Positions 16,462 to 31,248 of a DNA stretch of 33,272 bases are shown in pieces. Source of the stretch: a virus (Duplodnaviria; Caudoviricetes). Position numbers and translations under genes: made by a program. Each line of letters starts with the position of its first letter. Position 1 is the first letter of the stretch. The DNA is taken from positions 1 to 33,272 of the IMG/VR virus record IMGVR_UViG_3300012953_005009; one strand, written 5' to 3'. The notes beneath the pieces are model-generated. The model had not been told where the DNA came from, did no database searches, and worked only from the letters and a program-made list of their open reading frames with translations.

Positions 16462-17244
16462 TTATTTACTAAATCGTAAGAAACATCTACAGTTTATTGT
16501 TAGCGAAGGAGGCGCTATCGGATCTCTCGGAAAGCGTATTGGGATACTATTAACTATAAAAGGCTCACTTATTGCAACATTATCGCCTCTAAGTATTCTG
16601 TGAGTTTCCCTAACCTTATTATCTCGCATTGTTACCCATGTTTTCTTTATGGAAGCATCGTTTAATGCTGAATCATAAAGCCCCATGTTGTAAGACCCCA
16701 GTATGGCAGAATCAGCAATTAACTTCTTTCGCTTTCTTCTTAGTAGCCTAAAAACACTTTTTATCAAATAATAAGCTAATAAAAGCTTGAATGCTATATC
16801 AATATCGTCATCCTCTCCTTCAATGCCAGCGGCTTGAGATAAGGCTTGCACAATATACTTCTGTGTAGTAGAATTAAAAGTGTTAACAGTAGAAACCTGT
16901 TGTGACATAGCCGCACTGGCTGAATCTTCTTGAACAGGCTCACCATAACCTTCTTGAATATTGTCTTCAATGCCCTTTTCATAGGCTTTTTGCATGTCAC
17001 TTATCATAGGGTCGGATGCTGTAGTTAAAGCAGCCATTGAAACTACTGAAGCAAAATCAGCTTGCTCCCCTAAGCCTATCAAAGCTTTTGTAGCTTCTTC
17101 TTCTAAAGCATCTAACGCTAGTTTCTCTTGGGAGTCTATAACAGAGTCTAAAGTTCTTTTAAATGAAGACTCTAAAGAAGTTACAGATTTTTCTACTTTA
17201 GTTTCCCAAGTGTCTTCTAGAAAAGAGGCTTGTGGGGAAAAGGG
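16462..17244 (-). CDS. MuF / SPP1 gp7-family head morphogenesis domain, probably translated as a -1 frameshift extension of portal
   Basis: C-terminal KTWVTMRDNKVRETH...EPF...RFPRDP...TINCRC signature. The frame is open back to 17253 with no ATG/GTG/TTG before the weak TTG at 17082, and it overlaps the portal 3' end at a C CCT TTT heptamer. Confidence 0.85.
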   Translation of the reverse strand, partial: PFSPQASFLEDTWETKVEKSVTSLESSFKRTLDSVIDSQEKLALDALEEEATKALIGLGEQADFASVVSMAALTTASDPMISDMQKAYEKGIEDNIQEGYGEPVQEDSASAAMSQQVSTVNTFNSTTQKYIVQALSQAAGIEGEDDDIDIAFKLLLAYYLIKSVFRLLRRKRKKLIADSAILGSYNMGLYDSALNDASIKKTWVTMRDNKVRETHRILRGDNVAISEPFIVNSIPIRFPRDPIAPPSLTINCRCFLRFSK

Positions 17245-18827
17245 AGGCTCTTCTCACCCTCCTCTTCTTCCTCTTCTTCTAATCCATCTAATACGGAGGG
17301 AACAGCAGATGCGGGTAGTTCAATATCATCAGTTCCTTGAACTTGACCTAACGGAACAAAAGCACCTTCTTCAGGGCTAAATTCAGAAGCTACAGTTTGT
17401 GTAGCATCAGCTCCTTGATCTGCTAAAGGCACACCAGTTTGCACGCCTTGTGGTATTGGCTCAGTTCCTGGTGGTGCTGGATTTAGTATGCCCTCAGTAG
17501 AGGGTCCGCCAGCAGGAAGAGCGCCCTCAGGTCCCATTCCCGGTAATCCTGCAGGTGCACCAGCAGCAGCCGCCGCATTAGGATCTTCCATCGGTTTCTC
17601 TGTGTTTGCAATTGGCGTAAGATTGGGATTAGCTAGTATTGAATCAGCTAAGTCTGCTTGAACTTTCTTTCGCCCTGTCAAAGTCCTATATTCATTTACG
17701 CTTATAAGTCCTTGTTGATACTCCTGTAAATGAAACTGGCTTTGTTCTTGTTGCGACAATATGATAATGGGAACTCCAGTTGTGTCAAAATCAACAAAGT
17801 ATTCATCGCTAATCGGGTCAAACGACCTAGCTATAAGGTCAAGATGTGGCTCCATAGTTTCCATCCAGAAAACTTTGCCTTCTTCCATGGCGTTTGAGAA
17901 AGTTCTATTTGCGGAGTTACCTATAATTGACTCAGGAACACCAAAAGCTGCAAGTATCTCTTCTTTGTTTAGAGTACGCATTTGAATGTAGGCAGCATCT
18001 CTAGGGCTTGATGCGGTGTCAACAAAATCTGCACCGTCATCTGATGCTATAACGCCTACAGCACCAGCCCTTGCTATATTGCCTTGAAAACGTGATCTAA
18101 GTTCATCTTTATCTTCGTCACTTATTTCGCTTCTAACAACAAGCAATCCACCCGGCCTTCCGTCATTTACCAAGAAATTTCTATTATAAACTTTTGCTAA
18201 GTTTTCAACTTCTATGGCTACACCAGCAGCTTGCATAGGGGTCATTGACAAATAAGGATCAAGTGGGTGAGGCCTTCTTATCCAAATAACATTATTTGGT
18301 TTTATAATTCTCTTATCGCCTTGCGGAAGTTTGACTTCGTATCCTGAAACAAATTTAGAAACATGGGGTATCGGTGATGTGTCTTGTGGCGGTAGTAGAT
18401 GTAGCGCCATTGGATCTCCGAGCCTATCCCTAACTACCTCTATAAAGACTCCACGTGAGCTCATCAAAAGCTGGGCAGATAATCTATACCTAAAAGCGAA
18501 AGCGTTTTCTCCAATGTTTGACGTATTGTTAAATACTTCTAGAACACTATCGTTTGAAATTATCTCTCCAAAAGGATTGTTATCCTTTCTGAAGACCATA
18601 GGAAGTTTAGCTTGATTAGAAGCAATAACGTCAATACATCTAAACACCCACGTTATTTTAGCAACACCATCGTTGTAGGCTTTTGTTATATCCCAGCCAT
18701 CATGGTAACCTGTTTTCGGTTGAAGGCTTGGGCTATAGGCTATAGGGGCGCCTACAGAGATAGCTGCTTTTTTCTGCACCTCAGATAAGTTTTCAAAAGA
18801 TTTATTTGTTGTTGGGTTCCACGCCAT
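17217..18827 (-). CDS. Phage portal protein, HK97 family
   Basis: Motifs WVFRCIDVIASNQAKLP, LHLLPP, LSMTPMQAA, NRNFLVNDGRPGGLL, EEILAAFGVPESIIG and GLISVNEYR, followed by a Pro/Gly/acidic tail. Confidence 0.95.
   Translation of the reverse strand: MAWNPTTNKSFENLSEVQKKAAISVGAPIAYSPSLQPKTGYHDGWDITKAYNDGVAKITWVFRCIDVIASNQAKLPMVFRKDNNPFGEIISNDSVLEVFNNTSNIGENAFAFRYRLSAQLLMSSRGVFIEVVRDRLGDPMALHLLPPQDTSPIPHVSKFVSGYEVKLPQGDKRIIKPNNVIWIRRPHPLDPYLSMTPMQAAGVAIEVENLAKVYNRNFLVNDGRPGGLLVVRSEISDEDKDELRSRFQGNIARAGAVGVIASDDGADFVDTASSPRDAAYIQMRTLNKEEILAAFGVPESIIGNSANRTFSNAMEEGKVFWMETMEPHLDLIARSFDPISDEYFVDFDTTGVPIIILSQQEQSQFHLQEYQQGLISVNEYRTLTGRKKVQADLADSILANPNLTPIANTEKPMEDPNAAAAAGAPAGLPGMGPEGALPAGGPSTEGILNPAPPGTEPIPQGVQTGVPLADQGADATQTVASEFSPEEGAFVPLGQVQGTDDIELPASAVPSVLDGLEEEEEEEGEKSLPFPHKPLF
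17238..17244 (-). other. Putative -1 ribosomal frameshift slippery heptamer C CCU UUU
   Basis: X XXY YYZ pattern in the portal frame; a -1 shift lands in the MuF frame. AGGAGG lies 13 nt upstream and a weak hairpin starts 5 nt downstream. Confidence 0.72.
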
Positions 18828-19039: not shown

Positions 19040-20356
19040 ATGGCGTTACAAGAACCAGACTGGGAATCCATACATAAATGGCTTCAACCTAAAGGATCTG
19101 AATACTGGGTAGAAGAACCTTCCCTTACTCAAAAAGTTTTCTTAAAAACAACTGCGCAAGAAGTATTGTTTGGAGGAGCTGCTGGTGGTGGTAAAAGTTC
19201 AGCGTTGCTAATGGCAGCTTTACAGTATGTAGATATTCCTAGCTACTCAGCTATACTTTTTCGTAGAACATATGCTGACTTAGCGTTGCCTGGCGCTCTT
19301 ATGGATAGGTTTAGAGACTGGATATCTAACTATGAAGATATTCACTGGAACGCAAACCAATATACGGCTACTTTCCCTAGTGGAGCTAGAATAACATTCG
19401 GATACTTAAATAACAGTCAAGATTATCTAAGGTATAAAGGTTCTGAATTTCAGTTTATTGGCATGGATGAGGTTACTGAAATTCGTGAAGCTGACTATCG
19501 CTACTTGTTCTCTCGTTTACGTAGGCCATCTACTGGTCCTTTGTCTCAAGTTCCGCTTCGGATGCGTGCAGCTACCAACCCTGCACCAAACTGGGTTAGA
19601 CAAAGATTTCTAGTAGAAGGTAATGAAAAAGGCAGGATATTTGTTCCTTCAAAACTTACAGACAACCCAGGCATAGACCCTGACTCCTACAGAGCAGTTC
19701 TAGCAGAGTTAGACCCAGTTGAACGTAAAAGGCTAGAGTTTGGCGACTGGTGGGCAACAACCCTTGGGTCAATGTTTGACAGAACGCAATTTGAAATACT
19801 TGAGCCAGCAGAAATACCTGATTTCAATAAAGAAACAACTATAGTTAGGTTCTGGGATTTAGCCGGAACAGAGCCAAGTCCTTCTTACCCTGATCCTGAC
19901 TGGACAGTGGGATGCTTGGGCGCAATGCACGGAGGAATATTCTATGTTCTAGATGTTAGGCGTATACGGGCAAAAGGAGATAGGGTTGAAAAGTTTATAA
20001 AAGAAACTGCAGAAGAAGATGGTGCCGAAATATCAATAATGATGGAGCAAGAACCAGGCTCGGCTGGTAAAAATCTTATTGATCAATACGCTCGTTATGT
20101 GCTCGTAGGATATGACTTCAAAGGACAACGTTCAACTGGCGATAAAGAAACAAGAGCTAAGCCTATGTCGGCTGCAGTAGCTAATGGCAATGTTAGGCTA
20201 CTTCGTGGGCATTGGAATACCGACTACATTGATGAGATGTCAGCTTTTCCGGAAGCTAATGTACACGATGACCAAGTTGATGCTTCTGTGCATGCTTTTA
20301 ATTTATGCGCAGGATTAGGAATGGGCATAAAAAAGAAACTTGAGATTATAGTTTAA
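19040..20356 (+). CDS. terL: Terminase large subunit
   Basis: Walker A GGAAGGGKS, Walker B FIGMDE, motif III AATNP, nuclease motifs RFWDLA and HDDQVDA, AAGGAG RBS. Confidence 0.95.
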   Translation: MALQEPDWESIHKWLQPKGSEYWVEEPSLTQKVFLKTTAQEVLFGGAAGGGKSSALLMAALQYVDIPSYSAILFRRTYADLALPGALMDRFRDWISNYEDIHWNANQYTATFPSGARITFGYLNNSQDYLRYKGSEFQFIGMDEVTEIREADYRYLFSRLRRPSTGPLSQVPLRMRAATNPAPNWVRQRFLVEGNEKGRIFVPSKLTDNPGIDPDSYRAVLAELDPVERKRLEFGDWWATTLGSMFDRTQFEILEPAEIPDFNKETTIVRFWDLAGTEPSPSYPDPDWTVGCLGAMHGGIFYVLDVRRIRAKGDRVEKFIKETAEEDGAEISIMMEQEPGSAGKNLIDQYARYVLVGYDFKGQRSTGDKETRAKPMSAAVANGNVRLLRGHWNTDYIDEMSAFPEANVHDDQVDASVHAFNLCAGLGMGIKKKLEIIV

Positions 20357-20520
20357 GTAACCTCTAGCGCATTCATTAATATCTTTTGAGCATCATAAAG
20401 CTTTTGCTTGTACTCAACCCTGTCTATATCAATGCGGTCTTTCGCCGCTTCTATTGATGCAAGGGCGGCAACTGCTACATCAAATTTAAATGTAACCGTA
20501 ATGTCTTTGTTTTCATCCAT
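20353..20520 (-). CDS. Small hypothetical protein (55 aa); missing from the ORF track
   Basis: MDENKDITVTFKFDVAVAALASIEAAKDRIDIDRVEYKQKLYDAQKILMNALEVT*. Start overlaps the upstream gene's end, and its stop overlaps the convergent terL stop (TTAA). Confidence 0.7.
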   Translation of the reverse strand: MDENKDITVTFKFDVAVAALASIEAAKDRIDIDRVEYKQKLYDAQKILMNALEVT

Positions 20521-21202
20521 GCCATTCTCTATCTAATATATATATTTGATTAATACCGTCATCTAAATGCTCTGCTAAATCAATGATTTCTTCTGGTAGT
20601 AGTCTAACGCATCCCCAAGAGTCTGGGTACTGCTCATAAACTGAATCATAATGATTTGTCCCATGCATCAAAATGCCCCTAACTACCGAATTAGAGTTCC
20701 TATCTTCTTGAGAATACATACGCAAAATAACTGTGGTTAGCTGTCTAGTTAACTGCCACCTTTGGTCCTTAGGTAAGGTTTGATCAACAGTAGCATAACG
20801 ACCAAAACAGCTTGTCGTCGTCCACTGTGCACCTATCTCGTCCATGTCACACACAGTTGCTTCTGCACCTATAGTCGTCATATACCCTACAGGAGTTCGG
20901 TGTGAGTTAACAGTATTCCCTAAGCGAACTATCTTTCCTGCAGCATTGGGTGACCCATGCCCTGTTGATACACGGTATTGTCTTCGTACTGACCCATCTA
21001 CAACGTGCCACATAAACTGTGTTTCAGGATCAACTATAAGCACAGAACTAAACAAGTCTCCAGAGATCTCTGCAAGTTCAGAAAGCCCTGTCTGAACTGG
21101 CTCTGGCAAGCTATTACTTGTTTGTGGAGTAAAGAACAGTGACGTTGAACCAACAGCTAATGCAACTAATATTTTAAAAATATACCATGCGATGTAATGC
21201 AT
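20513..21202 (-). CDS. L,D-transpeptidase (YkuD family) with N-terminal signal/anchor
   Basis: Hydrophobic N-terminus, YRVSTG, RTPVG and the catalytic GILMHGT...SWGCVRL (His...Cys) motif. Confidence 0.88.
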   Translation of the reverse strand: MHYIAWYIFKILVALAVGSTSLFFTPQTSNSLPEPVQTGLSELAEISGDLFSSVLIVDPETQFMWHVVDGSVRRQYRVSTGHGSPNAAGKIVRLGNTVNSHRTPVGYMTTIGAEATVCDMDEIGAQWTTTSCFGRYATVDQTLPKDQRWQLTRQLTTVILRMYSQEDRNSNSVVRGILMHGTNHYDSVYEQYPDSWGCVRLLPEEIIDLAEHLDDGINQIYILDREWHG

Positions 21203-30273: not shown

Positions 30274-31248
30274 ATGACTAAAGAACAACTTTTAAAAGAC
30301 GCCTTAGGGCAAATAGAAAAACAATTTGGAGAAGGCTCAATTATGAGACTAGGGGACAACACCTCTATGGAAATTGAAACCATCTCAACAGGCTCAATAG
30401 CCTTAGACATAGCGCTCGGAGTGGGTGGACTACCCAAAGGACGAGTGTGTGAAATATACGGACCAGAATCCTCTGGTAAAACCACTCTTGCTTTACATGT
30501 TGTAGCAGAAGCCCAAAAGCTTGGCGGTTCGTGCGCATTCATTGATGCTGAGCACGCATTAGACCCTATCTATGCAGAAGCTATCGGATGTGATGTAGAC
30601 AACTTGTTAGTAAGCCAGCCTGATACTGGAGAACAAGCGCTTACAATTACAAATAAACTCATAGAGTCTGGTGCTATAGACGTTATCGTTGTTGACTCAG
30701 TAGCTGCTCTAACTCCTGCAAAAGAAATAGAAGGAGAGATGGGCGACAGCTTCGTGGGATTACATGCAAGGCTTATGTCACAAGCAATGCGTAAGATAGT
30801 TGCTAACTTAAACAACTCAAAAACAATTCTTATTATGATCAACCAGATCAGAGAAAAAATTGGTGTTATGTTTGGTTCCCCTGAAACGACAACAGGTGGG
30901 CGTGCTCTGAAGTTCTACTCATCTGTGCGATTAGACATTCGCAGAATAGAAACCCTAAAAGCAGACGGAGAAGCATCAGGAAACAAAACAAGAGTTAAAG
31001 TTGTAAAGAACAAAGTTGCTCCTCCTTTCCGACAAGCAGAATTTGAAATTACCTACGGTGAAGGAATTAGCCGAACAGGTGACATTGTTGACATAGGGGC
31101 ACAACTAGGCATCATAGATAAAAAAGGCGCTTGGTACGCATACAATGGTGAGAACATCGGGCAAGGGCGTCTCAACACCAAAATCTTCCTAGACGACAAC
31201 ACAGACGTTCGTGAAGAAATAGCATCTAAAATATACGAAGCTGTATAA
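30274..31248 (+). CDS. recA: Recombinase RecA (bacterial type)
   Basis: [70 protein letters not shown] and KNKVAPPF. Confidence 0.98.

Follow-up and report, generated by a model that had tools for sequence, protein, structure and literature searches.

The closest described systems are -1 ribosomal frameshifts stimulated by an internal Shine-Dalgarno (SD) element and the MuF proteins encoded beside phage portal genes. In the accessible parts of PMC4066793, the H_HHU_UUY class of heptamers ranks near the top in efficiency in E. coli, C_CCU_UUA and C_CCU_UUU are stated to shift above 0.1% without stimulators, and a GAGG or GGAG placed 6-17 nucleotides (nt) upstream stimulates shifting; the accessible part of PMC5009743 gives 9-14 nt as the SD spacing for -1 shifts. 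Binding to portal and DNA at few copies per virion is known for SPP1 gp7 only, as far as the accessible text of PMC5576092 goes. MuF-like genes are listed among the unverified predictions of PRFect, and in phage 9g a -2 chaperone shift makes use of CCCUUUUUUU, both according to sources available in part. Here we analyse the 33,272-nt linear virus record IMGVR_UViG_3300012953_005009 (hereafter the window, meaning the whole stretch of DNA), in which a portal gene is followed by a MuF coding region in the -1 frame. We propose, with a probability of about 0.88, that an SD-stimulated -1 ribosomal frameshift at the portal end yields both a 536-amino-acid (aa) portal and a predicted 788-aa portal-MuF fusion.

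Results

Structure of the portal-MuF junction

The elements of the junction, with the genes to which they belong, are the following.

18827-17217, minus strand: portal gene, 536 aa, HK97-type, with PF04860 at residues 60-384, then a Pro/Gly-rich linker, then an acidic linker
17263-17256, minus strand: internal SD-like element AGGAGGGT, its GAGG ending 13 nt before the heptamer
17255-17245, minus strand: fixed-length spacer with invariant bases -9 G, -7 A, -6 G and -4 G
17244-17238, minus strand: slippery heptamer CCCTTTT, C_CCU_UUU (X_XXY_YYZ), read in the portal frame as C CCT TTT
17244-16462, minus strand: coding region for MuF (SPP1 gp7-like), PF04233, in the -1 frame and without a conserved start codon, with 260 codons counted from the heptamer
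17237-17217, minus strand: frame-0 portal tail and stop, differing in length and sequence among relatives
17232-17207, minus strand: proposed hairpin, drawable (-6.0 kcal/mol), not supported as a conserved stimulator

Across the junction the portal frame reads GAG GGT GAG AAG AGC CTC CCT TTT, followed by six further codons and TAG. The AGGAGG of the SD-like element occupies 17263-17258, with a spacer of 13 nt to the heptamer, and the element forms a predicted duplex of about -14 kcal/mol with an assumed 16S ribosomal RNA tail, which may not be that of the host. A TGA at 17256-17254 closes the -1 frame four codons upstream of the heptamer; from 17253 to 16462 the MuF frame is open for 263 codons, and its first ATG, GTG or TTG is TTG 17082, 57 codons after the opening. 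The positions of the heptamer, the SD-like element and the MuF frame given in a preliminary description of this DNA all held on rechecking, and its product sizes were reproduced, since computing a tandem slip gives 528 + 260 = 788 aa and 86 kDa, next to 58 kDa for the portal alone. Both partners score above their Pfam thresholds, the portal against PF04860 with 182.5 bits (curated cut-off 39.1) and the MuF frame against PF04233 with 37.8 bits (cut-off 29.6), the latter domain ending four residues before the stop. The MuF of the window is of the short type, a PF04233 domain 3' of the portal without a C-terminal toxin domain. An Rfam scan over the junction gave no match there and one weak match elsewhere in the window (E 0.54).

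The hairpin had also been put forward as a stimulator, and this part of the description did not stand. It is no more stable than shuffled sequences (z about -0.4 for a 45-nt segment), and a search of 21 distinct junctions for a conserved 3' stem-loop, with a pseudoknot-free folding model, returned median z values of -0.39, -0.33 and 0.04 at 30, 45 and 60 nt, with z below -2 in two, none and none of the 21; on this shuffle comparison the hairpin was rejected. No conserved 3' structure 5-9 nt downstream, of the dnaX/IS911 type, is thus seen, and the stimulator is most likely the SD-like element alone, perhaps together with the spacer.

Conservation among relatives

Protein searches returned 211 loci (numbered L), many of them the same contig fetched twice, and 212 were classed with the window included: 109 with MuF in -1, 60 fused in frame, 25 without MuF, seven in +1, six cut, and five skipped as distant or cut. 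After collapsing, there are 102 distinct junctions, of which 50 are in -1, 42 fused, eight MuF-less and two in +1. Comparison strongly supports the core of the preliminary description, a predicted programmed -1 shift at C_CCU_UUU with an internal SD that leads to a portal-MuF fusion: an in-frame C_CCU_UUH is kept, together with the frame offset, in 49 of the 50 distinct -1 junctions. Junctions that have lost MuF, or in which MuF starts at an ATG of its own, have also lost the signal: an in-frame heptamer is present in none of the eight MuF-less and neither of the two +1 junctions, the latter (L014:5427-5500 and L039:5427-5503) lying inside the -1 clade with a MuF ATG that overlaps the portal end.

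On a quick tree of 94 rows, with Shimodaira-Hasegawa-like approximate likelihood ratio test (SH-aLRT) support only, all -1 rows other than L288, 42 in number, fall into one 53-row clade with support 99, alongside MuF-less, +1 and one fused row, and every other fused row lies outside it; with its midpoint root chosen for drawing, this tree would fit a fused ancestor. In three distant fused relatives (L034-L036) the junction still has C_CCU_UUY, accompanied by no more than a weak SD. GAGG-N13-CCCTTTH is present in 26 of 27 related records, most of which were chosen because they contain it; reversed, the pattern occurs in none of the 27. The four nearest cultured portals examined (Gilgamesh, GMA6, Cantare and Gray, 36-40% identity) are long single open reading frames (ORFs) with no cassette of the kind defined below after the portal core; an in-frame C_CCU_UUC of Gilgamesh lies inside the portal core end without an SD and was not counted. 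By eye, one portal relative (L045:3806-7175) carries an in-frame insertion of ~370 aa, with an HN end before Thr, that is probably an intein.

Base counts were taken from 40 distinct 67-nt junction windows. All 40 have GAGG at -17 to -14, T at -12, G at -9, AG at -7/-6 and G at -4, and all have a TGA, TAG or TAA that closes the -1 frame upstream of the heptamer; the distance from SD to heptamer is constant and that from heptamer to portal stop is variable. The Pro codon is always CCT (background 0.36) and the Glu codon always GAG (background 0.40), while the codon before Pro, always ending in C, encodes Leu in 27, Ala in five, His in three, Val and Asp in two each and Arg in one, the Leu codon invariably being CTC (background 0.03). 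At the A site TTT occurs 33 times, TTA five and TTC twice. The resulting 24-nt consensus, GAG GGU RAG NAN NSC NNC CCU UUH, will be called the cassette. Within viral_contigs its slippery pattern had 77 hits. A control pattern that leaves the upstream part as it is and puts synonymous non-slippery bases in the heptamer had 0; this control alters both positions together and does not count single changes. These counts indicate that selection acts on the nucleotides of the junction signal. What is expected of an SD-stimulated -1 frameshift is thus found here: a shift-prone in-frame X_XXY_YYZ heptamer, an SD-like element 9-14 nt upstream, and a conserved frame offset together with conserved synonymous positions.

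Alternative explanations

The heptamer would be incidental if MuF were a separate gene with its own initiation, whether from TTG 17082, from some other internal codon or through coupling to the stop of the portal. MuF genes are usually separate and lie just 3' of the portal gene (PMC5576092, in its accessible part), and two junction types within the clade, L014 and L039, do have an ATG overlapping the portal end; these own-ATG lineages, however, are the ones that lost the cassette. The position of TTG 17082, whose use had been named as a refuting alternative, holds TTG in five and TTA in six of 11 near relatives and has no SD before it, the first possible -1-frame starts scatter over codons 17-77 in the 40 junction windows, and the conserved GAGG has no start codon near enough for initiation; TTG 17082 was rejected as the MuF start on its lack of conservation, its lack of an SD and this scatter. 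Homology, moreover, already begins at residue 14, from which the MuF profile phrog_2468 matches the frame, and a W-x-x-x-K is conserved at codons 10-20 of the -1 frame in 37 of the 40. In the start-less part, nonsynonymous change (pN) is 0.198 and synonymous change (pS) 0.53, and third positions vary most (30, 20 and 43 of 52 columns), which indicates protein-level constraint through purifying selection. We consider a separate MuF gene very improbable.

Alternatively, the conserved element could be a peptide, E-G-x-K-S-x-P-F, perhaps a prohead-protease site, with slippage weak and incidental and MuF barely expressed. HK97-type proteases cleave after Lys. The evidence in its favour comes in part from a candidate second copy of the signal in the window:

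10742-10719, minus strand: candidate second signal copy in a 3649-aa gene, with GAGG, 13 nt and an in-frame C_CCU_UUU

Here the -1 frame stops after three codons, and the slip product would have ~552 aa. The heptamer is kept in 11 of 23 complete homologous sites (24 loci, one cut), nine of these 11 having GAGG at the same spacing and two having it 2-3 nt further upstream; among the sites without the heptamer, GAGG is found in one of the nine in which the Pro-Phe pair was located. The peptide K-S-x-x-P-F persists in most homologues that have no heptamer, and K-G-A-D-x-P-F is present in fused relatives. It is plausible that the second site is a slip signal in some lineages, with a weaker case than the portal site; as judged from the homologues, a peptide-level motif underlies this region, and the cassette may have grown out of it. 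At the portal junction, however, synonymous non-slippery hits are absent, Phe may be replaced by Leu provided that the codon starts with TT, and MuF is under purifying selection. A peptide as the conserved element is a very unlikely account of the portal site.

Transcriptional slippage, with one base added in the pyrimidine run by the polymerase rather than a step of the ribosome, would yield the same product, and a long pyrimidine run does span the site in the window. The T run is just 3-4 long, however, the C run that follows is not conserved, and the phase of the heptamer, like the constant spacing of the SD-like element, is a mark of the ribosome. We give this explanation a very small chance.

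The frame break itself is genuine. Contigs from eight runs list no insertion or deletion at the junction (run X1, a possible source of the window DNA, was not counted as independent), a contig from another study covers 17100-17498 with zero differences, and a substitution at one site, 17230, which occurs in three runs, would leave the MuF protein unchanged and replace a Lys of the portal tail by Arg. An assembly error or recent mutation in an in-frame portal-MuF fusion gene can practically be set aside: such fusions, which had been named as a possible refutation, are indeed common among relatives (42 of 102 distinct junctions) and also occur in cultured actinophages (Gilgamesh gp46; PMC7302621, in its accessible part), but they sit on other branches of the tree, the window has no sign of error in the run contigs or the spanning contig, the identical -1 offset recurs at 109 loci from many samples, and the quick tree places the -1 group inside a single supported clade (SH-aLRT 99).

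The cassette outside the portal-MuF family

Of the 77 strict-pattern hits, 66 are a portal followed by a -1 MuF of the window's family and 11 lie in other genes; two looser patterns gave 97 loci and at least 119 loci (119 of 122). Most hits of the loosest pattern are not chance, because its eight free positions show a strong bias: of the 44 distinct 8-mers that do not belong to the family motif, 38 have A at -7 and 39 have G or C at -4. A Pfam scan covered selected proteins from cassette loci (13, 19 and 44), and within this selection the cassette follows a portal domain in frame at 22 other loci (17 PF04860 and 5 PF06381), which form 16 clusters at 50% identity together with the window and L262 (= L299). 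The long continuation is in -1 at four of these 22 portals (L054, L308, L331 and L362). At the other 18 the polarity is truncating, with the continuation in frame 0 and a -1 frame that stops within 2-24 codons. Cargos after the cassette include MuF and a PBECR3 nuclease domain (L344), and in L071 Acb1 precedes the cassette. A flip of polarity with homologous cargo is seen between the window and L262 (72% in the portal core; L262 is one partial contig) and between L307/L308 and L347 (portals 84%, MuF 68%); L054/L388 was rejected as such a pair because the cargos are not homologous.

The cassette is also found between a tail chaperone (PF11836) and a gpT-like frame (PF06223). The G/T junctions that have it are those of L296/L306 (L296:2501-2524) and L368:1801-1825, with Pfam support for L296 and L368. 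Because -1 shifting is established at such junctions, these cases act as a positive control for function by context. In Paenibacillus phage Bob, a cultured relative of the L296 chaperone, the joined chaperone is annotated and no cassette is present at that junction. By eye, the cassette is also seen at the chaperone G/T junctions of L294 and L437.

Cassette-like sequence was observed just before a UvrD-type helicase domain at L063:2501 and L366:1801 (with MutS-I upstream in L366), and L433 looks similar, which could reflect a module border or background. The cassette occurs, too, in frame and in both polarities inside large acidic and very long proteins (L098, L102, L345, L359, L396, L403 and L411; L393, L415, L426 and L446), with no informative Pfam match in the seven of 11 that were scanned.

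Gene context and host

The window has a completeness estimate of 22% and a GC content of 40%, and its DNA occurs in marine metagenome runs; no RNA data set is listed among those that contain it, which speaks neither for nor against expression. On the minus strand, portal (PF04860) and MuF (PF04233) are followed by a prohead protease (PF04586). Two further features are of note:

12371-1422, minus strand: 3649-aa ORF directly after the head genes, with weak helix-turn-helix, sigma-70 region 4 and tRNA nucleotidyltransferase/poly(A) polymerase matches
19040-20356, plus strand: terminase large subunit, alone among minus-strand genes and transcribed away from the portal

The 3649-aa protein resembles a packaged polyvalent protein. 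A very acidic 712-aa protein shares DUF3721 repeats with the long C-terminus of the protease (14680-12542 and 16360-14711, minus strand) and contains seven motifs of the form acidic-x-Lys-small, possible protease sites. The phage also encodes RecA and a protein with an L,D-transpeptidase (YkuD) domain (30274-31248, plus strand, and 20513-21202, minus strand). An actinobacterial host is likely, because the top cultured matches to the portal are actinophages (36-40% identity) and one of the two genome hits is an Acidimicrobiia bin.

Discussion

The proposed frameshift would involve pairing between the GAGG 13 bases upstream of the heptamer and the 16S tail of the translating ribosome, and re-pairing of tRNA-Pro and tRNA-Phe or tRNA-Leu on CCC UUU, such that a fraction of ribosomes steps back one base near the portal end with no need of a 3' structure. 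GGAGG and GGUGA within the element could pair with the assumed tail in two registers one base apart, which might favour the backward step. Portal and fusion would then likely join one mixed portal ring, with MuF tethered inside the head in fewer than twelve copies. Where the cargo lies in the -1 frame a slip would add it, and where it lies in frame 0 a slip would remove it. That both polarities are in use points to an intermediate efficiency or a wide tolerance. Taking the loci outside the family into account, we are inclined to regard the signal as a portable, structure-free 24-nt cassette reused at module borders (portals, tail chaperones and large head proteins) of unrelated tailed phages, where a one-base indel behind it flips whether a slip adds or removes the cargo, and which would let phages dose MuF or enzyme cargo such as PBECR3 on a mixed ring. 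If so, an efficiency high enough for either wiring is implied.

Several observations weigh against the proposed frameshift or against the wider reuse of the cassette. The 40 junction windows are related, and their counts are not independent events. L288 is the sole -1 junction without the heptamer; its place on the tree is with the fused relatives, and it may reflect an indel. At the second site K-S-x(1-2)-P-F is conserved without the heptamer, which 12 of the 23 sites do not have, and part of the conservation may be at the peptide level. The 16S tail used for pairing may not be that of the host, and efficiency could be low because no 3' stimulator was found. Cassette hits also occur in helicase, ThyX, terminase, amidotransferase and non-coding contexts (L063, L366, L346, L357, L340, L295, L304, L311, L351, L382, L423 and L427) and may be background. 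Finally, a mixed ring is not required in the wider family, because 38 of the 42 distinct fused junctions are without C_CCU_UUH; with the sister phages of opposite polarity, this makes a ratio mimicking the one or two gp7 per capsid of SPP1 awkward.

Should the proposed frameshift be correct, the portal, usually seen as twelve identical subunits, would be a programmed mixture in many phages, and a phage would have a means of packing MuF or effector domains into its head in defined number. Standard gene calls would cut ~55 residues off MuF in the window and would miss the short portal in 'fused' genes with an in-frame cassette. The short -1 signal, which needs no structure and has natural variants of either polarity, would also make the role of SD and spacer directly testable.

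The class of mechanism is already known. We found no published precedent for the portal context or for the two-polarity cassette. No published description of a portal-MuF frameshift or of this cassette was found in the accessible parts of the literature covered, which included PMC7302621, PMC5512222, PMC4066793, PMC5009743, PMC3711429, PMC10885494, PMC5576092, bioRxiv 10.1101/2025.10.02.679949, PMC2628397, PMC10299305, PMC7911831 and PMC4276943, subscription papers such as Xu et al. 2004 being beyond reach. The word 'portal' occurs 0 times in the first 300,000 of the 449,034 characters of the review PMC5009743, and 'portal' and 'MuF' are absent from two supplementary files of PMC3711429 and one of PMC10885494; other supplements, including those of PMC4066793, could list a portal cluster.

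Among described systems, as represented in the accessible parts of the sources, the locus resembles SPP1 gp6/gp7 and the in-frame fusions (PMC5576092, PMC7302621, Streptomyces phage Gilgamesh gp46) in having PF04233 directly after the portal and MuF tied to it, but a recoded, partial fusion is not described there. With dnaX and the IS911/IS3 family (PMC4066793, PMC5009743) it shares an in-frame X_XXY_YYZ heptamer, an SD-like element within the tested spacing and two products per gene, as well as, for dnaX, truncation in the portals of reverse polarity; unlike them it uses C_CCU_UUH (Pro-Phe/Leu) instead of A_AAA_AAG, has conserved spacer bases and no conserved 3' stem, and lies in a phage portal gene. 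Phages T7/T3, Lactobacillus A2 and Listeria A118, A500 and PSA (PMC5009743) likewise give a minority of structural subunits a C-terminal extension, but those extensions are on major capsid or tail proteins and mostly carry Ig-like domains. As in the lambda G/GT chaperone (PMC5009743), a start-less downstream frame would be reached through a -1 shift that sets the ratio of a short to a long morphogenesis protein. Unlike that chaperone pair, which lies between the major tail and tape measure genes, the pair here is portal and MuF, followed by PF04586, and its products would be expected to stay in the virion.

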